From: Eledone cirrhosa
Taxonomy: Eukaryota
Length of the DNA: 64,000 nucleotides
Assembly (NCBI GenBank): GCA_964016885.1
Contig: OZ024740.1
Location: 184,388,001-184,452,000 of the forward strand
Direction of reading: 5' to 3'
Shown here: positions 19,901 through 62,432 of the stretch, one piece after another
How positions within the stretch are numbered: position 1 is the first letter of the stretch
How the letters are laid out: the number at the start of each line of letters is the position of its first letter
Translations under genes and position numbers: made by a program
Notes under the pieces: generated by a model
Told to the model about the DNA's origin: nothing
Database searches by the model: none
Seen by the model: the letters and a program-made list of their open reading frames with translations, nothing else

Positions 19901-20625
19901 GGTATAAAGGGTTCTGTCTTATTTTGAATGCCTAATTTATGAATAATTTCCGAAGCTTCTTTATTTAGGTTTGAAAGATCTTCATTTGATGTTTTTTTTA
20001 TAGTTTTTCCTAAATTCCTTCAGTATTAGGTTATTATACGCATCATTTTCAATACCATATAAATTATTGGTTTTGTCCGATTTTACAAGGATCTTCTTTG
20101 TTTTTTTCAGATTGACTATTTTGTTTTTGAGGCCTTTGAGGTACTCCAGGCCAATAAATTGGTTCCTTTTAAATTTAACGTTCTGTATGATGGAGATTAT
20201 TACATTTTCAAATTCGGTTAGTAATTTGTTGGAAGGTGGATTTTTCTTTGATTTGAAAATAAGATCAAAATTATACTTGGATTTATTTATTTCCTTTTCC
20301 GATTTCCTATCAAAATGGAAAGCGCGCCATCTAAGTTTCCTTAAAAAGGAATCGGATTTTTCTATAATTTGTTTTACGTATTCCTTATTTTTAGGTAAGG
20401 GTACATCCTTTAAAAAAGAAGAAATCTTTAAAAATTCCATTTTTAATTCCTCGCAATCTGTTATAGTTTAAAGTGCTCAACATTATAGGAGTTAAGCAAA
20501 TAGATAGTTTATATGTTGGTAATTCAACAAATATATTTATAACAGATTCGAAGCACTCGTCAGATTTTCTGGAATATAATATCAATCATATTAATAAATA
20601 GAAACTATATTTATAAAACCATATT

Positions 20626-26055: not shown

Positions 26056-28429
26056 TTATTTATTATGTCTATTTTATTCTACGTTAACAAAACATTATAT
26101 ACGACAAAAAATAACATTACAAGAAATCCTATATTTACGAACGTAAATTATACAATTACCGATTTGCCCAGCTCTGTCATTACACGACACTATCTCTCCC
26201 AATCACCCTCTATATATCAATTACAACCAAATCCACCTCTCTATAATATCTGTTGAGGTACACCTTTAAATTCTTTATACTCACTTTGTACTGACATACT
26301 GCATATTTAATTTTACACATTCTATATGTACTTTTTCATTCTTTTTGTATTCGTTGCCAATACGTGTGTGGGGAAACACTGCTTCCTACATTTCAATAGT
26401 GTATCTGCAAATCTAGAAAATAGAAATAAGTTCTTCGCAAAAGAGTACCTATTCAGAATGTTCTGAAAACATGCAGCAATGCTTGAATGTAAGGTTCCTT
26501 GATAACACTCTACATTATTTTGTATTTGGTGCTTGCTTTTCGAAACAAACTATTTTCGTTGGCTGTAAATAAGCTATGCATTATCCTATCACCAAGTAAT
26601 CTAAGTTACTTAGATGACTTTTATTATTGTTCTGCAAACATCAGAAAACAAGAAATTAATAGAACTGAAAAGTACATTTCAATGTTTTAAAACATAATTA
26701 GTTTCATTGAACAGTTGTTATTCATGTTGAAAATTGAATATTTATAAACAGAATAAGATCGGAAATATATACAGGATAATAAAAATACATGAATTACAAA
26801 AGATTATACATTGTACAAAGATATTACTTGTCAGTGTAACATGTTATTGATATTTCTCTCCTCCGTCTGAAAACATTAATCAACATTAGGAAGAAACATT
26901 CGAAAGCCCCAATCAAAGTTAATATCGGAACCATCATTGTCGTATTAGATATCCATCTCGTGTTAGAAGGCTTATGCGAGTGGCGAGTTTAATTCAAAGG
27001 GAGCTATCTTACATCCAATGGAGGTGCGCGCCCGAGTATTCAGTGTTTTAACCCACCCTAGAATGTGCGCCCCAGATCATATTTGATAGGAAGCACAACG
27101 ATTGGGGGGCGGGGGTTATAACAATCTGTATTCCATGCTTAATTATTACACTGTTTTCAGTTAAGCAAATGTTTAAAAGGGAAGACAATATCAGTCTTGC
27201 ATTATAGAGTATACATAAATAATACAAAGTAAAAAAAGGAAAAGAGAGTAAACATCGGCTAATTTTGTTATAAAATTGAACAATTTCAAGTTCCAGTTTC
27301 AATCAATCCATAGGTTACACTGCTTGCACGGATCCCCTCTCTATCACTATCCAATTTTATTGTTCTCATATTCGGCAGGTCAGAGTGTGTGCAGTTCATA
27401 TCGTTGCAATTATTGGTCTTGGCTTGTCGTCCTCTGCTAGCTCTTCCTTGAGTAGGCTCCCGCAAAAGAACTTCACTAATAACCTCGTCTTTAGCTCTCC
27501 GTTAATGCCTTGCGAATCTGACTCTACGCTCCGAGATGATGTCTGATACCGGACAAAAGTTTCCATATAGTCGCTCATTGGTCAGAATACGGAAACGGCA
27601 ACATAAAACAGAACGATTGGGAATGCTGGCCTTGTGCCGAATATTCGAGCGATAAATATATTGATTACATTGGTATAACGATCTTTCTAGTCTGTGTTAG
27701 GTATGGAAAATACGACTGTTATATCGCAATGGAGTAGATTTTGTATTTCGATTCATATACTGTAGACTTCACAAGCAAATGAATATTTTGTATTAATATA
27801 TGAAAGGATATCATCTGCTTTTGTATCCTGTCAGTGGCGAGAGAGTCTATTGACATTCAAGCACCACAAATCTCTTTGCCGACACGAATGCTGTAAACTT
27901 TATACCTTCAACTGCACTATTATTCATGCAATTATTATACTATGCGACACGTGTAACATGTATGTACTACAAGGATCACTTGCAATCGACTACATCATTT
28001 AAAACGAAAGAAGAAAACATTAGAAAACTACACACTTACACTCTACACAATTCTCCACAAACAAACTTGTACTAATGATAGGATGAATTATCAAAACAAG
28101 AAAACATTACAATAAAAAGACATACACCATGCAGTAATACCATACAAAATTGTACAATCTACTGATGATGTATATATCTCACAGGTACAAATTGAAATTT
28201 GGATGACACAAATTGAAATTCAAATTCGGAAAAATTCAAATATGGATTTGATGCTGCATTCTATAGATGTCTAACAATTTACATCAACACCTCACCATCT
28301 AGAACATTAAACTATAAAATTCTCGAAATGTTGATGAAAAGAATTCATACGAGAATATGAAATACAAAAACGTTGATACAAAAGGTAAAGCTAGAATAGT
28401 CATATTTTCCATAGCAATACCACACACAC

Positions 28430-30056
28430 ATATAAGTATATACACACATTTAAAGAGAAATTCCCTAACCATACCTTTGGGCTTTATCGAGACGATGGTC
28501 TAATACTTTCCCATACCACTATAGGCCATAAATTAGATAGATTCAAGAAAAACTTAATAAAAACCATCGCTAGTTTTAATCTGAAAATTACCATTGACAC
28601 TAACCTTTCTAATGTTAATTTTCTAGATATAAACCTAGATCTGCCTACTGCTTCTTATAAACCGTACCATAAACCTAATGAAAATTTAAAATATATAAAT
28701 AAAGGCTCTTGCGATCCTCCTATAGTTTTTAAATATCCTATCCCTAATATTAGCCGTATGATCTCCACCCTCTCTTCCTCAGAAGCTATTTTCAATAAGG
28801 TATCCGCCTACTATAATAAAGCCCTTCAAAATAGCGGATTTAGCAAACCGATTAAGCACATACCCAACAATACTAACTCCTTTAAACATAATAATAGGAA
28901 AAGAAAAATAATCTGGTTCACTCCCCCTACTCTTTAGCAGTTAAAACTAATGTAGGCAAAAATTCTTAGAGCTCTTAGATAAACATTTCCCTAGAACACA
29001 TAGATACTATAAGATCTTCAATAGAAACTGTGTAAAAATCAGCTACTCCTGCGGTCTCCCTAATAAATCTTATATCTTCAATAAGAAAATACCCAGAGAA
29101 CATAAAAATTGATCCTGTAGAGTCAAAAGTGAATGCCCATTACAAGGTAAATGCAACACCAAAGCCATTGTATATGCGGCTAAAGTGACAACTACCAGCA
29201 ACAACCTACCAGCCACCAGCGAACGATATGTGGTTATGACACAAGACAAATTCAAAACGCGTTATTACTCACATGTCGCATCTTTCCCACATCCTGAAAA
29301 CAGATTTACAACAGCTCTGGCTAGCAGAATATGGGAATTGAAAGGCCAAGGTATCCAATATAAATTAGATTGGTCAATTTTGAACCAATCTGAAGAATAT
29401 GCAAGAGGAACAAGAAGATGCGCACTCTGCATAAGTGAAACATGTTGGATGTTACAGAACCTTAAATCACCAAAAACCTGCCTAAATGCAAAAACAGAAA
29501 TTTTCAACAGTTGCCCACACATAAAATCACACTTATTTTCCAGCTCATATAAACTTAATTCACTTTCAGATACTTATCCTCCATAAATTCCTGTTCTTCA
29601 CTTTCCTTAAATTACCCTCTTTACAGACTTCTCTTTCTGATTTACTTTTATTTTTATTTTTAACCTTATTTTTACTTCACATCCACCAGTGACCCCCCCC
29701 CCTGCTTTTTCATTCACTTACTTTATATCTTCACAATTTTTCATATTTTACTTCCTCATTTCCTTTCACTACCACTTGTCACTTGCGTTTTCAACTCCAG
29801 ATATATTCTGTTGTCTCTCAGCCGCTTTTATGTATGTTTACTTGCGTATAATTTGTACTCATTTATTCATACGGCTGGTTTTTATATTGTATCTATGCGT
29901 GTGAGCGTGCAAGTGTGTGTATGCGTGTGTGTATATGTGTACGAATGCATCCGTATGTGCGCGTGTGTGTGTATATGTGTGTGTGTATGTGTGTTTTTAT
30001 ATCTATGTTTTAAATATACTTATATATATATATGTATGTGTGTGGATATGTATATG

Positions 30057-37299: not shown

Positions 37300-38421
37300 G
37301 ACAGGGGGGAAAAAAAAATGGCTTCACTTGTGCTTTCAACAAATTTATTTTCTTCACGAAATCCAAAAAGAATTGTTCTTAAAAAAAAATTATCTTATAA
37401 ATTAAGTTGTTGGTTGTTGGTTAGGTCTTAGGAGTTCTTGGTTAACGTAGGAGGTATTGTTTCGTTTTTAGAAAGACCTTTCACGCTGAGGTGCGCTTGT
37501 CAAACTGATGTGTATGTGGTGTGTTGTTCTATATATAGGGATTTAACATGTCTGTGGTGTGGTGGGGGTTTCTTTTCTCCCCCTTTAATAAGTGCATGGG
37601 TGTCGGTGTGTTGAAAAAGTGTTCATAGCAGTAATGAGTTGAGACGGTGAGTAGAGTTGGGTGGGGAGAAGTGTAGCAAGTGCGGCCTGCCAAGGTCATT
37701 CTCGAAAAATTCCTTTATTTAGGGGAAAAAGCTTTTAGCATTGCTTTTGTGTTGAGAATGGTCACAGGCAAATCGCACCTGTCAAGTTTGTGAATAATTC
37801 TTTTTTTTTTTTTTTCCTGAAGAATTTTTCTCCGTCCATCCCAAAGTTAGTCCTTTGTTCAACACACACATATGTGTTCATATACATACATACACACACG
37901 GGCATATGCAGGAATATATAGGCACACACCATCAATCACACACCCATGTACAAATACATACACAAAAACATATAGAGACACATATGAAAACACACATACA
38001 CATACGTACACACACGAATATGTACTCATACCTCCACATGGGTATATATATATACATACATACATATATATATAAACATATATATACATACATATACACA
38101 TACAAACACATACACACACACACATATATATACATATATATATATACACACACACACACACATATATATATATACACACATACATACATATACATACATA
38201 CATATACATACATATACACACATAAAGATACATAACTAAATATACATATATACACATACACGCACACATACACACACACACACACACACGTGTATACACA
38301 CACACACACACATATACATATGTCCGTATATATACCCCTCCGTTCACACATACATGCATACATACACACACATACTCACATACATCTATATATATATACA
38401 CATATAAAGAGAGAGGCATAC

Positions 38422-38475
<54 letters not shown>

Positions 38476-38722
38476 TATATATATACACACACACATACAT
38501 ACACATACATATACACATATGTACACATAAATACATACAGACACATACACACATATACACATACATATACACATACATATATATCCATATACATATATAT
38601 ACACACATACATATACACATATATATATATATGTATATATATATACACATACATACACATACACATACACATACACATACAAGTACATACATACACACAT
38701 ACATACGTACACATACATGTAC

Positions 38723-38775
<53 letters not shown>

Positions 38776-39064
38776 TACATACATATATATATATATATAT
38801 ATACACATACACACATACACACATACATATATATATATGTGCGTATACACGAGCACATAAAGACACATATACACATACACATACATATACATATATATAC
38901 ACACATATACACATACATCTACATACATACATACATATACACAAACAGAAACATACACATATGTACACACATATATACATATATGCACATACATACACAC
39001 ACATACACATATATATATAGGTACATACACATATATACACACACACATAAACATACATATCTAT

Positions 39065-39141
<77 letters not shown>

Positions 39142-39198
39142 CACACACACACATATACAAACATACACATACATACATGTACATATACACATATATAC

Positions 39199-39245
<47 letters not shown>

Positions 39246-39301
39246 TATACATATATATATACACACACACATACAAACATACACACATCCATACATATAT
39301 G

Positions 39302-39358
<57 letters not shown>

Positions 39359-42300
39359 ATACCCACATAGATATATACCCATACGTACATACATCCATAC
39401 ATCCCTACACACATATATGTGTGTGTCTCACCGTTCATTCAGATATTCATGTGTATACATAAGAAGAGGGGGGTGGGTAGTGAAATGTAATTTTACCTCC
39501 GAGTGTTAATTCATTTTTTCGTGTTCAGTAGCGGTTTAAATTTTTCAATGAAGAATTCTTCTTTATATCTGCGGAAATGTTCGTTATCCGACCATATCTT
39601 GAAGAAAGGGAAGATTGTGAATTTTCCCTTCCCGCCTGATGCAAAGTGTGCGCTACATGTGGTATTTCTGACTGTGGTGTCTTTAATCTGTTGTTTATGT
39701 ACCCGGACTCTATCATGTAATCCCGTTCCGGTTTCCCCAATGTAATACTCTTTACACTGTGGACATGTTGCGCAATATATTAGGTTTTTCGTTTTGCAGT
39801 TCATGTTAGCATTGACCTTGAAATTATCATGGTTTTTGAATGACAACTGTTTGCCCTCTTCGATGAGTTCACAGGTTCCACATCTAGGGTCCCCGCATTT
39901 CGTCACTTGCGTTGATTCCATGTTGGTCGTCAATTTTGCCTTGTTAATTAGTTTTTTAAGGTTGGGTGCTTGGCGCCTGCTATAAATTATCTGTGTGTTT
40001 TTAAGAGTGCATTCATTTTGGTAGATTGCTGTAGAATCGGGAGATACTGCTTAGCAGTTTTCACAATGTTGATGTTCCCTGGGTTGTGAGTGATGACAAA
40101 AGAGATAGCAGGGTTTTCTTTTTTATGTTGTGGGTTTGGTTTTCTCAGTGTTGTTATTGGGATGTTCTTAGCCTTGGAGACGGCTGCGTTGATGAGTTTC
40201 ATCGGGTATTCTTGTTTTTTAAGGAATTTTTTCAGGTCACATAATCTTTTTTCTTGTAGTACGGGGTGTGTTGCTATAGTGCAGATGCGCCTTGCCATGT
40301 TGAAGGGAATGTTCCTTTTCGTATGTGAGGGGTGTGCTGACCGGAAATTTAAGTATTGGTGTGTGTCAGTGGGTTTACAAAATAGGTCCGTTATGATATT
40401 TTCCCCTTCTTTAATGATGAGGATATCTAGAAAGGGCTGTTCCTTTTCGTTACATTCCATAGTGAATTGTATAGCTTCATGAAGCCTGTTTAGGATCGAA
40501 TAACATTTTTTTTTATAGGTCTGTTTGGCTTCTGTTCCAGAAGATGAAGCAGTCATCTAGGTAACGTTTCCAGTTTTTATTAATGTAGAAGGCGAAGTCG
40601 TGACTAAATGTTATCTGTAGTTGGGAATATAATTTTGCCTCTAAGTGACCCATAACGAGCGTTGCATATGTAGGGGCCACTTTGGTACCCATGGCTGTTC
40701 CTTTTATTTGTAGATAAAGTTCGTTGTCAAAGAGGAAGTGGTTGTTTTCCAATACTAATTTAAGTCCTTCCAAGATGAATTCTTTGGGGAATCTTTCTGA
40801 AATGTGACTTGAGTGTTTTGTAATCCAGAAGTCCACAGCTTCAATCCCTAGGTCGTGTGGGATGTTAGTGTACAGGCTTATTACATCAAAACTGACTAGG
40901 ATTGTATCCTGGTGTACTTTTTGGGGATATAGTTAAGGAATTCCATATCATCTCTGATGTAGCTTGGAACTTTTTTACATAGGGGTTTGAGTATGATGTC
41001 TAATAGGTTGCTTAGACGTTGTGTGCTTGAGGATGGGCCAGCAATAATGGGGCGTAATTTTAAGTCTGTCGGTTTTGGCGCTTCGATGTATGATGTATTT
41101 TTCCCTTTTATGTTGTTTTGGATTTCTATGGATTTGTGAATTTTTGGTAATCCATAGAAATTGCTGGTTTTCATTTCGAAGTTGGTTAGGTAATCTACTT
41201 CTTTTGGTGTTAGGTTGTTTTGGTACTTTGTTGTTAGTTTGCCTATTTGGTTCCTCGATTTCCTTTCTTCGTTTTTAGTGATTTTCCTGTAGAAGTTTTC
41301 GTCATTCAAGTGTGCTAGGACCATATCTTTGTAGTGGTTTGTGTCCATGATGACGATTGCTCCACCTTTGTCCGCTTCTTTTATTATTATTGAGGAATCT
41401 CTGTGTAGCTTGTTCAATGCTAGTAGTTGGTCTGTAGGGATGTTGGATTTGTGTTTCGTCTCGGCCGTATTTGTACGTGCTGATCGGCGAAGGCAGGTTA
41501 TGTATTCCTCCAGATATTTATCTCTATTTAGCGGGGGGGGGTGAAGTTCTTTTTGTTTTTTACCAGTGATTCTTCCTCGTATTGTACACCCTGGAAGAAT
41601 TCTCCTAAGCGTAATTTTCGACAGTATTCTTCTGTGTCTTTTATAACATCGGCTGTGTCTGCTTTCGGAGTGGGAGTGAACTTCAGTCCATTTTCTAACA
41701 GTTGTATTTCTGGTTGTGTTAATTTCTTGGCTGATATATTGATTATTTTTGGTTCGATTGGTTCTTTCTCGTCAGGTGCCACTTGAAAGGTGGTGCTTTT
41801 TTCTTTTTTTCTTTCATTTGGTGCGAGGCCCCTAGTCCTAAAAAATGGGGGCCATTTGGGATAGGGGTATTTCTGTTGTGGTGAAACCTTTGGCGCGCCG
41901 GAACTTCATGTCGGTAACTGGTTGGGCGATAGACTCTTGCATGGCCATTGCTGTATGGGGCTCTGGTTCTTCTGTTGATTCGTTCAGTATTCATGTGTCT
42001 TTGATTTTGTCTCCGGTGATTGTTCTTGGTGTTATGGCAATGGTTGTATCTGGTTCTGGTGTTGAGTATTGGGTCTGTATGTAGTTGTGTGTTTGGGGTT
42101 ACCCAATATCTGGTTGTTGTTGGTTTATTGTGTGTGGGTGCTTCATTTCTTGTGTTGTTGTATTTTCCTGAGTTCTGGGGTTTCCTATGGGTTTGTTTTC
42201 TGGGTTTTATTTTGTCTTTCCCATAGTTATCTTCATATTATTGAAGCCATTGAGTTCTTGACTCCAAGATTTTCTTTGATTTTAACTCCTCTCTAGTTGT

Positions 42301-43120
42301 ATCTGTCTGCCATAGGTTAAGGAGTTTTTCACGTACATTGCCGCTGCTTCTTTTGTTTATTTCTTCTTGGATAGTGGTGTCGCATTTTTCAAATTTCTCT
42401 TTGAATTTTGGCACTCTTAGGCGGAGTAGGGTGATTTCGGTCTCAAGTGTTTGGAGTGCTAGATTTAGTCTTGTTGCAGTATCTTCCTTTGATTCCGATG
42501 GTATTTCTTTAATTCGGAATTTTCTCGGGAGGATAACTGGTTCCTTGCTAAGCCATATTTCGTATGTGTCTGCTAGGTTTTCACTCCTCAAGGCTTTCCA
42601 GTATGCCTGTTTCCTTTGATTTAATAAAGGGTTCCAAATGTTTTTCATTTGGTTTCTTTTTCTGTAGGCTTCTTTTTCTAGGTTCAGTTCATTCCATTCT
42701 TTGAATGCATTATTGGTGATGGAGTTCTGTTCATGTGTAGCTATTTCAGGAGAAAAGGTTTGTTCTCAACTCATTACTGCTATGAACACTTTTTCAACAC
42801 ACCCACACCCATGCACTTATTAAAGGGGGAGAAAAGAAACCCCCACCACACCACAGACATGTTAAATCCCTATATATAGAACAACACACCACATACACAT
42901 CAGTTTGAGAAGCGCACCTCAGCGTGAAAGGTCTTTCTAAAAACGAAACAATACCTCCTACGTTAACCAAGAACTCCTAAGACCTAACCAACAACCAACA
43001 ACTTAATTTATAAGATAATTTTTTTTAAGAAAAATTTTTTTTGGATTTTGTGAAGAAAATAAATTTGTTGAAAGCACAAGTGAAGCCATTTTTTCTCCCC
43101 CCCCCCCCCTGTCTTAATAT
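37293..43120 (-). mobile_element. Near full-length Penelope-like element (Neptune-like) with inverted terminal duplication
   Basis: ORF pieces 42238-42648, 41528-41782 (LLENGLKFTPTP), 40896-41417 (IKEADKGGAIVIMD, FYGLPKIHK, LRPIIAG), 40513-40836 (GTAMGTKVAPTYA, WKRYLDD), 39987-40556 (PFLDI, KPTDTHQYL), 39511-39933 (CGDPRCGTC, NLIYCATCPQCKEYYIGETG: GIY-YIG). Inverted arms 37293-37644 / 42764-43120. Confidence 0.93.
37855..39460. repeat. 1.6-kb compound (CA/TA) microsatellite inside the PLE 3' UTR
   Basis: Low-complexity acatat/acac tract between the ORF stop (39511) and the terminal repeat (37644). Confidence 0.9.
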
Positions 43121-43150
43121 ACCTAACTGTACCAAGGATTACACACATTT

Positions 43151-43190
<40 letters not shown>

Positions 43191-45894
43191 GATATGAGTG
43201 TAGTTATAGCTACAGGTAATAGGTCAGTTAAACCACTCACTGCTATTATTCGTATTTGTAAACCAATAGATAGACAATTTTCACGGAACTACTACTGCTG
43301 CTACATATATATATATATATATATACACACAAAACCACGCTCACATATCTATATATATATATATATATATATATGAGTGTGGTTTTGTGTGTGTGCTACA
43401 ATCTGAAATATATGTTACTTCATAGTTTGTTCGTTATTTAAATAAAATTCTCATGATGGGCTCATGAACGTGTGCGTGAATACATATGTGTAAGTGTGAC
43501 GTGTTTGGGCATAAATATCTGTGTGAAAAACGTATTTGTGAATGATAGATTATATTTATTTGTGTTGTTTTTGGAGCTATGAAAAGTTTGCTAAATGCAT
43601 TTTTGCGTCACTTGCAAATAATTTAGTAAAATTCTTTAATGTATCTATTGCTCTTTCACTGTGAAATTTTGAACCTATAGGCAGATTTCAGCTAAATTCC
43701 TCATAAATCGCTGTTTGATTCAAAATGTAAAGCAATGTTGTGAGATAATGTTTCTCGTTATTATTCACAAGTTAACAGTTTGTTTATTCCCCTTATAATT
43801 TTTAATGTTTCATTCTTTTTCTTTTAGCCAATAATTTTCTCTCTCTTTCTTACAAATAAGATATTGCTTAATTTATCTTATCGTATCAGTCAAGCAGTTT
43901 CAAAGAAATCATTTCCTTTATTGGCCACAAGGGCTCAATCTTTGCTGGCAGTACAAAAGTAGAATACATAGGAAAACAATAAGCAAGGCAGAATACGCGA
44001 TTTACATTGGATATATTGGGGAGTTTAGCCTATAATAATTGTTTCTACTTTGGGTTAAAATGGCATTAATGTAAAAGAAAGGGGTACGTCAATCAAATCA
44101 CTTCCAGTGCATTACTGATACTTTATTTTATCGACCTCGAAAAGATGAAAGGAAAGGTTAACCCCTCCACAAATTTAATAAAAACAATTAAAAGCCCGTA
44201 CTAAGACTAAACGTCTGTTCGATGCTCTAACAATTCTGTCATAGTTGATTAAAGAGGCTCATGTGTTTGGATGGTACTATATAATTTACCGAACCCTGTA
44301 GGATGAAAGACGAAATTGTTCTTGGTGATCGTGGCAGCCAGAACGTTAATGGACCCAAATAAACACTGCAAAACATCTTGTCTGGAACTTCACTGATTTT
44401 ACATTTGTTTTTGTTCTTACTGATATTTTTTTTCTTGGTCTCACCATTGCTTTTGTTGTTTTGACACCGTTTGTAAGGTTCATTTTCCCAAATATTCTCT
44501 TTGGGTGAGCCAAACTTCCGGCTCAGATGAATACCCAGGGTTATGGATCCTGGACTTTATCAAATGCTCACCTTACTCTATTAGTTGTTCATTAACACAG
44601 TCAATAAAATATTAAACCTTCGCTGCACAGTGGATCGTTGGCTGGTATAAAGACCGACGTTATTCTGGAGTTTCTGAGTGTCGATGAAGAGGAACAAGTT
44701 CCAGTCTTATGAGAGAAGGTAGGGTAAAAAATGAAGATAATATCTGAAAGATTGTAACAGATTGGGTTTCGTTAAAAGTATCTCAAATAATGCTGTTAAC
44801 CCAGGGAATATATTACATTTATCATAAAAACAAATTATAGTTCATCCTATGAGCTTCTGCACATTTTCTGTTTGGTAACGGAAGCTTTTTGCTTGAGAAA
44901 TTCTAATTGTCAGTGTGTCTGCATTCTAGTCACCAATGTGCTTCTGTGGATGTAGTTTACATTTTTATTATTGTGGAAGGTGAGCAACTAATTCAGTTTT
45001 GTGGTAGTTTCTAAGCGCTGAAGATAAAGCGTAGTTTTGTTACGTTCGTGTTTAAGCCTGGGTTATCACCGATCAAATAGCCATGTGATAGAAAATGATC
45101 CTTGCCATGATTATCCCATAACCTTATTTGGGTATATCGATTCATAGTATATCCAGACATAGTGTAGCCAAGAATATTGCCTCTAGAGCTGTGTTACCCA
45201 ATGTGCTGTACACTTTTTGATACAATAAAATATAATTTGAGGTGATTTAATAACTATTTCTAGCAGATCAAGTACTTGTGTTGATGTTCTTTCGTTAGCT
45301 TGCAACTCCTATGTACGGAGCTTTCGATTTGCTATGGATATAATATTTTTCCCTCATATTAGTTATAGATATAATAGTCATAGAAACCACATACATACTC
45401 TAGTTGTTTATACCCAGAATTAAATTATTAATGTTTTTATCTTCTTTAAGAAATCATGTGCCATTGTTAAAGGGTCGAACGACTATGGGGAAACTCTTTC
45501 TTTCTCTCATTTACATGTTTTTTTTCTATATTTCTAGGTACTCACAACATATCTAGGGTTATGCAATACAAGAGAACAACATCAGTTTTTATTGATGACA
45601 TAACTCGCTTATTCTTAGGTGTCATGTTTTATTATATATATAACGCTTAATGTAAGTATGACATAGCGTTATCCTATAATAATACAACAATACAAACATT
45701 TCAAAGACGTGTATATATAATTGTTTCTACATTTGGCACAAGGCCAGCAATTATCACAGTGTATTACTGGTACTTTATTTTATCGACCTCGTAAGGATGA
45801 AAGGCAAAGTTAACCTCGGCGGGATTTGAACTCAGATTATAAAGAGAGGTAACTCTATTCTACCAAGCATGGCGTCCGACCCTATACCGATACT

Positions 45895-55378: not shown

Positions 55379-57211
55379 AATAATAATTTTAATAATAATA
55401 ATAATCATAATAATCTTATTAACCACAAGTTTCAGTGATTCCAGGAATTAATCTGAAATTATAAGGGATAAGATGATATCGCGTTCAGATACGGTTGGAG
55501 GGGGACTTAAAATTTCACCTTCTCTCCGGACTTCAAGGGAATTGGGGATAATTTGAAACCGCTTTATATTTTGTCTAGAATGTCCTAACGCTTCTCTTAC
55601 AGTAACTTCTTAGCAATTTCATGTTAGAATTTATACATTAATTGTTTCTACTTTTGGCACAAGGCCTACAATTACCCCATGCATTACTAGTGCTTTACGT
55701 GGTCTACCCCGTAAGGATGAAAGGCAGAGTTAACCTCGGTGCGATTTGAACTCAGAACGTATTTAATGTAAATCCTCCATTTATTTATACAATCGAAAAA
55801 ATACAGTGTTCTATTCTACTTTACCTATGTTCTCTGTATTATTTTATGACTACCACTAAATAATAAGATGCATATATTTTGTTTGTATCATTCATTTTAA
55901 CCTCTAATTATTTTGGCGGATATATTATCAATTACTTATATTTTATTATTCTTTATTGTTCTTTCTAAAGAATTTCCCTGGCTCCTTTTGCTTGTTACGT
56001 CTATTTTCTTCTCAACTGTTATGCATTGACTAGTTAAATTCAACACTACATACCTAGTTTTATTATTTGCTCAGTCCTCAAGCAGTCATTTGTATTTTAA
56101 ATATATATTCGTATTTTTCTTTCCTTTGTCTTTCTTAAATTTTTTTTTTGATATCAAGCCTATTAATTTGGACAAAGAAAAAATTAAATTAAAAAATATA
56201 TTCTTATAAGAATGGAAATATAATCGGAAGAAAATTGAAAAAAAAATCTGCTATAATTGTTATTTTTTCAATTTTCTTCCGATTATAATCCCAATAAATT
56301 TGGTCAGGTTATGTTCATAAATTAAAAAAAGTTTTAGTTTTCTGAATATTGTAATATTTCTCAAATAGATTTATTTTGAATACTTTTCATTTATTAAATT
56401 TCTTATATGTTTTTCACTTAGGTACAACAACAATATGCTTCTTTTTATGCATTATTCTTTTGTACATCACGCGGCAATTCCCATGCAACGAATCACTGAA
56501 AAGTGTTATTAAAAACAGGCTTGTCAACCTTCACACATGATGCAGGTATTTCCAACATTTCAGCGTATTTCTTTATTTATCTTTTGCTTAAACTGCTTCT
56601 GGTGAGGCTTTACATCCTATTATATACATGTTATACACAACTATATTACATCTTCTTGAATTTTGCCTGAGTCTGTTAAAACCGGCTGTAATTCTAAAAC
56701 AATTTGGTCTATATATATATATATATATAATTATTTCTACTTTTGGCACAAGGCCACCAATGATTCCAGTGCATTACTAGCACTTTATTTTATCGACCTC
56801 ATAAGGATGAAAGGCGGTATTTTAACTCAGATCTTAAAGGCCCGTAACTCCATGTTGCAAAGCATAGCGTCCGACCCACTAACGATACTGCCAATCCACT
56901 GCCATTATATATATTACGATCTGAGTTCAAATCATGCGAGGTTAACTTTGCCTTTCATCCTTACGGGGTCGATAAAATAAAGTACCAGTAATGTACTGGT
57001 TAATTGCTGGCCTTGTACCTAAAATAGAAACCATTATATATATATATATACCGCATAGAGTTACGGCCCTTGCCATTCTGAGCTCAAATCCCGCCGAGGT
57101 TAACTTTGCCTTTCAGCCTTATGGGGTCGATAAAATAAAGTAGCAGTAATACACTGGATAATTGCTGGCCTTGTGCCAAAAGAAGAAACAATTATATATA
57201 TATATATATAT

Positions 57212-57475
57212 ATAAATTGAAACAAAATGAAAACGAAATTTCATTTCTCACTCTTAGTATGGCACTTACTTAAATGTAAGTATGCATGTATACGTACATA
57301 CATATATGTATACAGACGTACAGTAGCATGCACATATATATATACATATACATATATACATACATATGCATACAGGTACACATACATATATGCACGTATC
57401 AGTTTAGCGGCGCTTATTATAACGTCGCTTTGTTCGTTTGTAAACAAACTGAACAGCCTGAATTTATGCCATACG
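57212..57475 (-). repeat. 264-bp inverted head of the 465-bp array
   Basis: Reverse complement of 57523-57786; preceded by (TA)n; 2-nt cg microhomology at the junction. Confidence 0.93.
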
Positions 57476-60049
57476 TTCCTGTGTCAGTGTTGAACAAAAA
57501 GGTGACGTGGTTGCCTTAACACCGTATGGCATAAATTCAGGCTGTTCAGTTTGTTTACAAACGAACAAAGCGACGTTATAATAAGCGCCGCTAAACTGAT
57601 ACGTGCATATATGTATGTGTACCTGTATGCATATGTATGTATATATGTATATGTATATATATATGTGCATGCTACTGTACGTCTGTATACATATATGTAT
57701 GTACGTATACATGCATACTTACATTTAAGTAAGTGCCATACTAAGAGTGAGAAATGAAATTTCGTTTTCATTTTGTTTCAATTTATCGTTTTCGGTATGC
57801 CTGACCGATTTAACTCACTCAATATGCAAATTAGGCTGCTCAGCCGTTAATTTTCATAAGGAAAGTATATACTTTCGAACGTTCAACTATCTGGCAGATG
57901 GGTAAACGGTGCTGATGATAGCTAACAAGCTTGAACATCGTTCCTGTGTCAGTGTTGAACAAAAAGGTGACGTGGTTGCCTTAACACCGTATGGCATAAA
58001 TTCAGGCTGTTCAGTTTGTTTACAAACGAACAAAGCGACGTTATAATAAGCGCCGCTAAACTGATACGTGCATATATGTATGTGTACCTGTATGCATATG
58101 TATGTATATATGTATATGTATATATATATGTGCATGCTACTGTACGTCTGTATACATATATGTATGTACGTATACATGCATACTTACATTTAAGTAAGTG
58201 CCATACTAAGAGTGAGAAATGAAATTTCGTTTTCATTTTGTTTCAATTTATCGTTTTCGGTATGCCTGACCGATTTAACTCACTCAATATGCAAATTAGG
58301 CTGCTCAGCCGTTAATTTTCATAAGGAAAGTATATACTTTCGAACGTTCAACTATCTGGCAGATGGGTAAACGGTGCTGATGATAGCTAACAAGCTTGAA
58401 CATCGTTCCTGTGTCAGTGTTGAACAAAAAGGTGACGTGGTTGCCTTAACACCGTATGGCATAAATTCAGGCTGTTCAGTTTGTTTACAAACGAACAAAG
58501 CGACGTTATAATAAGCGCCGCTAAACTGATACGTGCATATATGTATGTGTACCTGTATGCATATGTATGTATATATGTATATGTATATATATATGTGCAT
58601 GCTACTGTACGTCTGTATACATATATGTATGTACGTATACATGCATACTTACATTTAAGTAAGTGCCATACTAAGAGTGAGAAATGAAATTTCGTTTTCA
58701 TTTTGTTTCAATTTATCGTTTTCGGTATGCCTGACCGATTTAACTCACTCAATATGCAAATTAGGCTGCTCAGCCGTTAATTTTCATAAGGAAAGTATAT
58801 ACTTTCGAACGTTCAACTATCTGGCAGATGGGTAAACGGTGCTGATGATAGCTAACAAGCTTGAACATCGTTCCTGTGTCAGTGTTGAACAAAAAGGTGA
58901 CGTGGTTGCCTTAACACCGTATGGCATAAATTCAGGCTGTTCAGTTTGTTTACAAACGAACAAAGCGACGTTATAATAAGCGCCGCTAAACTGATACGTG
59001 CATATATGTATGTGTACCTGTATGCATATGTATGTATATATGTATATGTATATATATATGTGCATGCTACTGTACGTCTGTATACATATATGTATGTACG
59101 TATACATGCATACTTACATTTAAGTAAGTGCCATACTAAGAGTGAGAAATGAAATTTCGTTTTCATTTTGTTTCAATTTATCGTTTTCGGTATGCCTGAC
59201 CGATTTAACTCACTCAATATGCAAATTAGGCTGCTCAGCCGTTAATTTTCATAAGGAAAGTATATACTTTCGAACGTTCAACTATCTGGCAGATGGGTAA
59301 ACGGTGCTGATGATAGCTAACAAGCTTGAACATCGTTCCTGTGTCAGTGTTGAACAAAAAGGTGACGTGGTTGCCTTAACACCGTATGGCATAAATTCAG
59401 GCTGTTCAGTTTGTTTACAAACGAACAAAGCGACGTTATAATAAGCGCCGCTAAACTGATACGTGCATATATGTATGTGTACCTGTATGCATATGTATGT
59501 ATATATGTATATGTATATATATATGTGCATGCTACTGTACGTCTGTATACATATATGTATGTACGTATACATGCATACTTACATTTAAGTAAGTGCCATA
59601 CTAAGAGTGAGAAATGAAATTTCGTTTTCATTTTGTTTCAATTTATCGTTTTCGGTATGCCTGACCGATTTAACTCACTCAATATGCAAATTAGGCTGCT
59701 CAGCCGTTAATTTTCATAAGGAAAGTATATACTTTCGAACGTTCAACTATCTGGCAGATGGGTAAACGGTGCTGATGATAGCTAACAAGCTTGAACATCG
59801 TTCCTGTGTCAGTGTTGAACAAAAAGGTGACGTGGTTGCCTTAACACCGTATGGCATAAATTCAGGCTGTTCAGTTTGTTTACAAACGAACAAAGCGACG
59901 TTATAATAAGCGCCGCTAAACTGATACGTGCATATATGTATGTGTACCTGTATGCATATGTATGTATATATGTATATGTATATATATATGTGCATGCTAC
60001 TGTACGTCTGTATACATATATGTATGTACGTATACATGCATACTTACAT
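57474..60049 (+). repeat. Tandem array, 465-bp unit x ~5.5, apparently identical copies, hammerhead-like core in each full unit (candidate retrozyme)
   Basis: Unit starts at 57474, 57939, 58404, 58869, 59334, 59799 (ORF track repeats every 465 bp); CTGATGA at 57912, 58377, 58842, 59307, 59772; ends in (TA)n. Confidence refers to the array, not the retrozyme call. Confidence 0.95.
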
Positions 60050-60066
60050 ATATATATATATATATG

Positions 60067-60635
60067 AAGTAAGTCAAACATGTTAAATTTGGCTTCGTTT
60101 ATTATAAATTCTCTGCTATATATATTTCGGTGACAGCTATTATTGGCTGCGACCTCGTCAGGCAATACGAATTAATGTGGAAAAACAGGTGAACATGTTG
60201 CTGAAATGTGCTCCACTCTGTCAATTCATCGATATGTCCAGCTCCTGGGTGTGTTGTTAGTCCTCCGAGGAACTGGAATCATATCATTATATGAACTGGA
60301 ATCATATCAAGATATGATTCCAGTTCCTCGGAGGACTAACAACACACCCAGGAGCTGGACATATTGATGAATTGACAGAATGGAACACATTTCAGCAACA
60401 TGTTTACCTGTTTTTCCACATTAATTCGTACTGCCTGACGAGATCACAGCCAATAATAGCTGTCACTAAAATATATATAGCAGAGAATTTATAATAAACG
60501 AAGCCAAATTTAACATGTTTGACTTACTTATTTTACATTACTCCGGAGTAAACAAACCAACCTGCGTACTTCTTCGAGTGCTCCAATCTGCATACTGAGG
60601 TGTCGGTAAACAACCAAAATATACTCAAAATTTAT
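60067..60635. mobile_element. Fold-back PLE pseudo-LTR insertion (same family as 33925-34150) with an HHR in each arm
   Basis: 219-bp arms 60067-60285 / 60311-60529; HHR ~60113-60165(-) CTGACGA..GAAA-tatata-TA; copy 60431-60483(+) has lost the G of GAAA; 3' tail ttactcc...gagtgctcc. Confidence 0.85.
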
Positions 60636-60777
60636 ATATATATATATATATATGTAGGAGGTGAGTTTTATTGTAGTACAATAAAGCAATGCAGATATCG
60701 GATAAGAAGCACTCTACAGTTTGTGGGACTGGAGTATGCATAATATAAGATCAAAAGATGGTTAAAGGAGTTCCATA

Positions 60778-60848
60778 TATTTTATTATGCGCATTTCAAA
60801 AACAAACATCATCAAACAATAATATTTGTGTTTTCATCAGATAAAACA
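60778..60848 (-). ncRNA. Type I hammerhead ribozyme
   Basis: Reverse complement: tgttttat-CTGATGA-aaacacaaatattatt..gatgatgtttgttttt-GAAA-tgcgca-TA-ataaaata. Confidence 0.88.
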
Positions 60849-62331
60849 GGAGAACATGATATGAAGGCTAAAAAACACTTGTTGATAGTGCAGTTTTAAA
60901 TCAACATATGAAAAGTGGTTTTAGATTGATGTGTGATATTGGGAAAAAATATTTTATTTAGAGAGGGGGGGGGAGAAAAGGATGAAAAGGGAAGGAGATG
61001 AGAGGGAGAGATGGGTGATAGAGAGAAAGAGATAGTTTTTATAACTGAGAGGAGATATATTTTATATAGAGGGGTTGAAAACCGTTGGAAGATACTGTAT
61101 AAATTAAAAATTTTGAAAATTAACGAAGGGAGGATATGTGCGAGGAAAAAATATTTTATTTAGGGAGGGGGGGGGTGGAAAGGATGAAAAAAAGGGGAGG
61201 AGATGAGAGTGAAGGTGGAAAGGGAGAGATGGGTGATAGAGAGAAAGAGATAGTTTTTATAACTGAGAAAAAGATATAATGTTTTAATATAGAGAGGTTG
61301 GGAACCGTTGGAAGATAATGTATAAATTAAAGGAATTTGAAAATTAACGAAGGGAAATTATGTATGAAGATAGAGAGAAAAAAATAATAATTGTGGGTGA
61401 ATATTCTAACGTCAAAAGAAGAAATGTATGTATTGTGGGAATTTCAAAATTAGCAAAGAGAAAAATGTTAAGGTTTATGTGTAGAAGGATTTGAGAAAAA
61501 TAATGTGAAGTTAAAGTTTGTATATTGAATTCATATGTATTAATAATGAGTTCGTTGATGGGGAGAAAAAAATAATAATAATAAATTAAGGATGAAATTG
61601 AGATTAAAAAGATTTATGACGAACTCATTATTAATACATATGAATTCAATATACAAACTTTAACTTCACATTATTTTTCTCAAATCCTTCTACACATAAA
61701 CCTTAACATTTTTCTCTTTGCTAATTTTGAAATTCCCACAATACATACATTTCTTCTTTTGACGTTAGAATATTCACCCACAATTATTATTTTTTTCTCT
61801 CTATCTTCATACATAATTTCCCTTCGTTAATTTTCAAATTCCTTTAATTTATACATTATCTTCCAACGGTTTCCAACCTCTCTATATTAAAACATTATAT
61901 CTTTTTCTCAGTTATAAAAACTATCTCTTTCTCTCTATCACCCATCTCTCCCTTTCCACCTTCACTCTCATCTCCTCCCCTTTTTTTCATCCTTTCCACC
62001 ACCCCCCCTCCCTAAATAAAATATTTTTTCCTCGCACATATCCTCCCTTCGTTAATTTTCAAAATTTTTAATTTATACAGTATCTTCCAACGGTTTTCAA
62101 CCCCTCTATATAAAATATATCTCCTCTCAGTTATAAAAACTATCTCTTTCTCTCTATCACCCATCTCTCCCTCTCATCTCCTTCCCTTTTCATCCTTTTC
62201 TCCCCCCCCCCCCCCTCTCTAAATAAAATATTTTTTCCCAATATCACACATCAATCTAAAACCACTTTTCATATGTTGATTTAAAACTGCACTATCAACA
62301 AGTGTTTTTTAGCCTTCATATCATGTTCTCC

Positions 62332-62402
62332 TGTTTTATCTGATGAAAACACAAATATTATTGTTTGATGATGTTTGTTTTTGAAATGCGCATAATAAAA
62401 TA
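62332..62402 (+). ncRNA. Type I hammerhead ribozyme
   Basis: tgttttat-CTGATGA(62340)-helix II-GAAA(62383)-tgcgca-TA-ataaaata. Confidence 0.88.
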
Positions 62403-62432
62403 TATGGAACTCCTTTAACCATCTGTTGATCT

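Follow-up and report, generated by a model that had tools for sequence, protein, structure and literature searches.

A ribozyme-dead hammerhead array in the genome of Eledone cirrhosa and its probable origin by Penelope-type copying of one damaged retrozyme monomer

A 64,000-nt stretch of the Eledone cirrhosa genome (GenBank assembly GCA_964016885.1, contig OZ024740.1, positions 184,388,001 to 184,452,000, forward strand; hereafter the window, by whose positions features are numbered) contains a tandem array with an inverted head, which an earlier note made from the letters alone took for a candidate retrozyme with an atypical hammerhead ribozyme. The locus raises two questions: to which kind of element does the array belong, and how did more than five identical units, all with the same damaged ribozyme, come to lie in one place?

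Architecture of the array and its hammerhead lesion

The direct arm consists of five 465-nt periods, each identical at 465/465 positions, followed by a partial unit identical at 251/251, and the 264 nt of the inverted head are complementary to it at 100% (Table 1). The (TA)n tracts flank the array on both sides. The 5.5 identical units, the perfect inverted copy ahead of them, and the (TA)n borders described in the earlier note were thus confirmed. With unit positions (+n) numbered from the predicted cleavage site, the first base of the direct arm is +4, and the two arms overlap by 2 nt at the joint. The copy number of the array, like the 7-nt deletion described below, is known from the assembly only (3.0 Gb). 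GC content is 0.36 over positions 58001-60000. The longest ATG-started frames of the circularized unit, 96 and 95 amino acids, run through the TA/CA microsatellite; they are microsatellite-derived, and the unit has no credible ORF, as the earlier note had stated. Every unit carries the octamer ATGCAAAT (57825-57832 in the window) approximately 110 nt upstream of the cut site, and it is kept in most aligned units; we take it to be an octamer-type motif, and it is a possible promoter element.

Table 1 Features of the array in the window
Feature	Position	Strand	Remarks
Left (TA)n tract, inferred target	57193..57211	.	Sequence; family and Penelope-type 3' ends adjoin (TA)n
Inverted arm, unit +53 to +316, outer end "long" (+316), without ribozyme junction	57212..57475	-	
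Direct arm, from +4, five periods and 251 nt, outer end "short" (+254 to +257)	57474..60049	+	
TA/TG-rich self-complementary stretch of the unit, predicted long hairpin	57605..57720, limits approximate	+	
59-nt "tail" separating the preferred 3' ends +257 and +316, once per unit	57728..57786	+	Parallel with PMC11167929, as described there
First broken type I hammerhead	57906..57941	+	Repeats at +465, +930, +1395, +1860
Helix I 5' strand, first broken hammerhead	57906-57911	+	
CTGATGA, first broken hammerhead	57912-57918	+	
Helix II, first broken hammerhead	57919-57932	+	
GAA, then 7-nt deletion, first broken hammerhead	57933-57935	+	
Helix I 3' strand, first broken hammerhead	57936-57941	+	
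Right (TA)n tract, inferred target, adjoins a different two-armed insertion	60050..60065	.	

Homologous junctions elsewhere in the genome read CTGATGA-T-AGCT-AACA-AGCT-T-GAAA-CTAG-TA and then CATCGT, with which an upstream ACGGTG pairs. Judged by its sequence, the family ribozyme is a canonical type I hammerhead, with the cut predicted after GTA. An intact sibling junction aligned with the whole Rfam model Hammerhead_HH9 at 18.5 bits (E 0.03), below its gathering score of 52. None of the 147 Rfam matches obtained at E ≤ 10 over positions 56500-61000 was to a hammerhead, and the microRNA and snoRNA matches in the window, all under their gathering scores, were rejected as hairpin or microsatellite noise.

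The 465-nt unit matches a natural sibling unit of 472 nt exactly, except that the final 7 nt ahead of the cut site are absent; the breakpoints can move by one base. All five junctions of the array have lost an A from GAAA, the CTAG loop, and TA from the GTA triplet. With helix III and the cleavage triplet missing as well as this A, no self-cleavage is predicted for the window copy. The cut is predicted immediately 5' of CATCG (57936), and the direct arm begins 3 nt downstream of this predicted position. CTGATGA and helix II stand in each unit, as reported earlier, and a freshly mutated core, which the earlier note had offered as one option, is what the comparison with the intact sibling unit supports. 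The note saw GAA in place of GAAA; the lesion is 7 nt rather than a single missing A. Its other option, an atypical or non-canonical ribozyme, does not stand, since the family motif is canonical and both helix III and the triplet are missing from the window copy; likewise, the aac-atc-gtt hairpin fold with a cut at gtt^cc falls away because the homologues show that 7 nt are missing.

A dispersed family of retrozyme type

The intact 25-nt junction occurs in 16,662 exact copies genome-wide (0 for the reversed control), and a motif of the young subfamily occurs in 8,325 exact copies. The family was first retrieved by a DNA search that gave 43 matches from 40 scored candidates, and the stretch is present, whole or in part, in 20 of the 24 sequencing runs listed, under many organism codes. 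Across 206 ungapped copies taken from 109 loci, the six core positions of CTGANGA were each retained in 200-206 copies; the loci were partly picked by junction patterns, so that conservation from -26 to +9 is inflated. Common variation among these copies fell at N7, one loop-2 position, and the internal loop and included a G.U/A-U swap in helix I. U16.1 was rejected as a junction hot spot: 84 variants compared with 16,662 intact copies is background level, and its frequency in the first homologue set was a query bias.

Family units measure 466-550 nt, with 1 to 15 junctions per arm, ranging from monomers to multimers, and 77 of 90 arms (66 loci) have one junction only. No LTR-body-LTR layout was seen among the loci mapped. 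The circular monomer is predicted to be 68% paired (z about -8 compared with 40 shuffles), mainly through the TA hairpin; the parts of the unit outside this hairpin have a fold z of only about -1.5. The family thus appears to have the sequence traits of non-LTR retrozymes, namely a tandem unit, a hammerhead, no coding capacity, and GC below 50%. The window array itself has a complete hammerhead at 0 of its 5 junctions and is classed as a broken copy of the family; as stated in bioRxiv 10.64898/2026.07.22.740005, an "active" retrozyme requires two consecutive complete motifs. With a dispersed family and a canonical hammerhead per unit, the earlier assignment to a retrozyme-type element holds, and we place the array in such a family with high confidence.

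The family shares short, non-coding, low-GC tandem units with the metazoan non-LTR retrozymes described from coral, mussel, and axolotl (PMC7229834), as well as dispersed monomers to multimers; its own circle is predicted to be self-paired mainly through the TA hairpin. In ribozyme build, it comes closest to axolotl HHR_Amex2 of that description: helix II has a U.U mismatch at its base, and helix III is short and closed by a palindromic loop. The unit is slightly longer than the 150-450 nt given in PMC7229834 and lies inside the 51-972 nt of bioRxiv 10.64898/2026.07.22.740005. Unlike metazoan retrozymes as described, the family has an internal TA hairpin, fixed ends at +257 and +316, and head-to-head arms; the window copy additionally lacks helix III and the cleavage triplet. 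A count of 235 hammerhead matches in giant squid is given in PMC6962438, and the main texts of PMC7761336 and PMC7229834 contain no mention of octopus or cephalopods. At listing level, we found no description of the family, or of tail or array-fixed-variant evidence, in the octopus-ribozyme/Penelope and retrozyme literature; repeat catalogs such as Repbase and Dfam may already list it.

Two 3' ends, two arms, and the search for an autonomous partner

Terminal arms at 138 loci end near +257 in 103 cases, near +316 in 58, and elsewhere in 45, many of the last being blurred by microsatellite; both fixed ends run into (TA)n. The same loci contain 51 two-armed pairs, and the 32 callable ones comprise 28 that combine a long with a short end and 4 with two short ends, with none having two long ends. 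In the window insertion, the left arm has the long end and the right arm the short one. For arm pairs of one insertion (n = 72), a median of 3.3% of copies from other loci were equally close, and both arms thus come from near-identical templates.

In PMC8557442, 5'-truncated copies in inverted orientation and a tail on one of the two ends are given as features of Penelope, and in PMC11167929, the tail is the stretch between two internal reverse transcriptase (RT) start sites, AT-rich target DNA is cut on both strands, and ribozyme cleavage is dispensable in vitro, with uncleaved RNA as the main substrate. Like Penelope-like elements as described (PMC8557442; PAc/Poseidon, PMC11167929), the family has two 3' ends downstream of the hammerhead, a tail on one arm, an inverted 5'-truncated head, partial tandem copies, and an AT-rich/(TA)n target. 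The Penelope-like nature of the inverted head, proposed in the earlier note, agrees with the 28 long and short pairs and the (TA)n target, and we consider Penelope-type mobilization of the family very probable. Unlike these elements, the family has no ORF, and its hammerhead is canonical rather than minimal; none of the terminal repeats sampled showed homology to it, and its tail is 59 nt compared with 30-40 nt in Penelope-like elements and approximately 64 nt in the GIY-YIG elements of this genome. Chlamys MRC1 (PMC8557442) resembles the family as a non-autonomous Penelope passenger with multicopy head-to-tail insertions. However, Chlamys elements such as MRC1 are described as having 3' sequence in common with an autonomous partner, whereas no such homology was found for the family in the GIY-YIG loci sampled, and the clade of MRC1 is described as mostly without hammerheads, whereas the family hammerhead is canonical.

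The start of the array near the cut is real, at +4, but it does not reflect a family rule. Inversion junctions lay within 7 nt of the cut at 5 distinct loci compared with approximately 8.6 expected (176 noisy positions). With no enrichment, 5' ends at the cut site were ruled out as a rule of the family.

As described in PMC7761336, animal retrozymes show no motif indicating their helper, and in bioRxiv 10.64898/2026.07.22.740005, the link to Penelope is argued from co-occurrence and terminal-repeat trees, with DNA-level amplification allowed. The GIY-YIG elements of this genome, which we call Neptune-like from their CxxC linker, have two ends approximately 64 nt apart against (TA)n and minimal hammerheads of their own. 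Among 50 GIY-YIG loci, drawn from 150 scored of 10,596 candidates, none carried a terminal repeat with homology to the unit. Around the tail, the best of seven shuffle tests for similarity between the unit and these elements gave P 0.019, which is not significant after seven tests. A chimera screen of 197 loci yielded three head-to-head candidates, and L064 was added by eye. Chimeric insertions were rejected as proof of a partner, L241 being no fusion, L119 a nested insertion, and L082 ambiguous. L064 is the sole clean-looking fusion candidate: at L064:1060-1750, a retrozyme arm is joined 5'-to-5', without (TA)n, to an inverted Neptune-like terminal repeat, a possible co-insertion. Approximately 17 tail-adjacent neighbors indicate that independent insertion into a common (TA)n tract is frequent. 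A unit is also joined to a GIY-YIG fragment at L086 and L104.

Origin of the identical damaged units

The deleted junction has six matches in the genome, five in the window and one on C19, in an older subfamily. C1784 was ruled out as an allelic copy of the window locus, its flanks being different. Since the deleted junction occurs at only one other locus, no parent array carrying it is present in this assembly. Two gap searches beside the cut site (two 20-nt windows) gave 34 and 36 matches. Tandem neighbors with the same deletion were limited to the five in the window, with 0 among the 65 other deletion matches, which indicates that ordinary deletions do not spread along arrays. An intact same-strand junction lay within 1.5 kb at 14 of 55 deletion loci (10 matches without loci left out). 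Separately, where a deleted junction had an intact neighbor within approximately 630 nt, the deleted one was 5'-most at 10 of 13 loci (L184-L243). Deletion edges were not enriched at the cut site on either its 5' side (6/26, 6.3 expected) or its 3' side (1/30, 1.9 expected), and ligation scars were ruled out as a family trait. Given that neither deletion edges nor inversion junctions are enriched there, the position of the deletion and of the array start in the window could be due to chance.

The closest lineage, defined by an exact TA/TG microsatellite pattern, comprises 61 matches at 17 loci, 8 of which have at least two full units. Five of these eight arrays (C4:43.6, C9, C14, C17, and the window) have a private change fixed in every unit; of the remaining three, one has a fixed change common to other loci, and two have none. 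The private change is present on both inverted arms at C9, C14, and C21, and array-wide changes were also found at L132, L336, and L131. Fixation across the inversion means that, ahead of insertion, all units were derived from a single monomer sequence. This points to a one-monomer template copied repeatedly for these arrays, with circular RNA as the simplest form. Repeated copying of one template, as the earlier note proposed, is thus the best reading of the sibling changes, and the recent insertion that it inferred is supported as well, the copy being very recent. Two other young arrays are mosaic: L334 (G000:C1:69.58 Mb) has 17 full units and 15+4 junctions, with recurring unit types intermixed and one substitution shared by three units that lie scattered over both arms. 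L335 (C1:75.70 Mb) has 9 junctions, and five of its units form an identical block next to three that differ. Templates of several units, switching between templates, or turnover at the DNA level therefore also occur. A tandem pair at C1430 has a U16.1 substitution in common, which is compatible with a circle or a DNA-level model. No strand bias of the kind left by A-to-I editing was seen outside the microsatellite (9 A>G and 10 T>C distinct variants). In the window, the inverted head contains no junction, and the deletion therefore cannot be shown to be older than the insertion.

On balance, we think it likely that the window array is a very young, ribozyme-dead retrozyme copy made by a Penelope-type RT from one damaged monomer, and a single-monomer, circular template for it seems likely to a similar degree. 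In such a process, intact arrays would be transcribed and would self-cleave to 472-nt monomers, and a monomer minus its last 7 nt would be ligated into a circle or jumped end-to-end. In the window array, what every unit has lost is the final 7 nt at the 3' terminus of the predicted cleaved monomer, a loss consistent with ligation of trimmed RNA or with repeated end-to-end jumping. A Penelope-type protein would nick the (TA)n tract on both strands, and internal priming at +257 would give the direct arm, long in extent, and priming at +316 the short inverted arm. The damaged monomer would be copied about five and a half times into the tract, and the two 5'-truncated cDNAs would be joined through the 2-nt overlap. 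Circular RNA is proposed as the retrozyme template in PMC7229834 and PMC4209133. Several results speak against this reading: the mosaic arrays, the lack of enrichment of deletion edges and inversion junctions at the cut site, the inverted head without a junction, the failure to find a homologous terminal repeat in the 50 GIY-YIG loci, and the in vitro role of uncleaved RNA as main substrate in PMC11167929. The most specific version, in which a single circular RNA, wrongly ligated, was rolled 5.5 times by a Penelope-type RT and left the array as its record in DNA, has in our estimate an even chance of being correct.

The same Penelope-type insertion could have occurred without a circle. In one version, a short insertion lost 7 nt of DNA at its single junction and was then enlarged through slippage or unequal crossing-over; in the other, the template was a linear multimeric transcript from a parent array, not seen here, in which the deletion was already present. 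Deletions of 7-nt size are ordinary background, most arms (77/90) have a single junction, approximately 1.5 units suffices to seed an expansion, mosaic arrays exist (L334 and L335), and unequal crossover is proposed for local amplification in bioRxiv 10.64898/2026.07.22.740005. Yet several exchanges would be required, and the 5.5 units show zero substitutions or microsatellite slips; moreover, 0/65 other deletion matches are amplified, and the deleted parent array is absent from the assembly. The sibling private changes that span both inverted arms require a bottleneck before insertion, and unequal crossing-over would not put a private change on both of them. We regard an origin without a circle as a serious but unlikely alternative.

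It is improbable that one wrong consensus unit was spread by assembly or polishing over a genuine intact 472-nt array. The intact junction was seen in three sequencing runs (X1, X2, and X12), the deleted form was bridged by 0 of the 19 sequencing-run pieces listed, and one-base homopolymer errors occur at the junction on unplaced contigs. However, these runs are from unknown individuals, and contigs lose rare variants; polishing against >16,000 intact copies would favor the return of the 7 nt over their removal, and sibling arrays in the same assembly are resolved to single-unit differences. Finally, an active non-canonical hammerhead with GAA for GAAA that cuts at gtt^cc and founded its own lineage is hardly credible, because although CTGATGA, helix II, and helix I are still present, the variant differs from a canonical motif by the loss of 7 nt, failed to spread (6 matches compared with 16,662), lacks the A15.1-U16.1 pair with a complete GAAA, and has a predicted fold that closes helix I with no helix III.

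Copying of one damaged monomer by a Penelope-type RT bears on the retrozyme model of circular RNA, rolling-circle reverse transcription, and Penelope machinery, which in the sources cited is so far proposed rather than shown. The family has been active recently and adds two sharper signs, a tail rule at fixed positions and whole-array variants across the inversion. Most striking among these cases is the window array, in which the fixed variant takes away precisely the 3' end that the self-cleaved monomer is predicted to have, and it is useful as genomic evidence of rolling-circle retrotransposition in a new non-LTR retrozyme family. If this reading is true, the family, with its array-wide private changes on both arms and its strict pairing of long and short ends, would be direct genomic evidence that Penelope proteins prime animal retrozyme circles internally at two fixed sites and that such circles are inserted as more-than-unit-length cDNA, with coordinates defined for an in vitro test. 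The intact 472-nt and dead 465-nt units form a matched pair for cleavage, circularization, and priming assays.

Other elements of related kinds lie nearby. Directly to the right of the array, a 237-nt inverted repeat (60058-60538) has the appearance of a two-armed insertion from another family, each arm bearing a hammerhead-like core and one arm having the longer end; a motif related to it occurs at approximately 34022 on the minus strand. A large near-perfect palindrome between (TA)n tracts (60650-62430) is probably a two-armed insertion as well, and its terminal sequence also precedes the GIY-YIG fragment in L104. On the minus strand, positions 37500-43200 contain a frameshifted Neptune-like element with RT and GIY-YIG; its terminal repeats, both direct and inverted, have a minimal hammerhead of a U3-A8 variant form. 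Two further segments, 28395-29586 and 19982-20467, gave no Pfam match; they resemble fragments of Penelope-type RT and endonuclease of another clade. Elsewhere in the genome, L196:182-800 contains a different tandem repeat of approximately 310 nt with a hammerhead-like motif per unit, probably a second retrozyme-type family.
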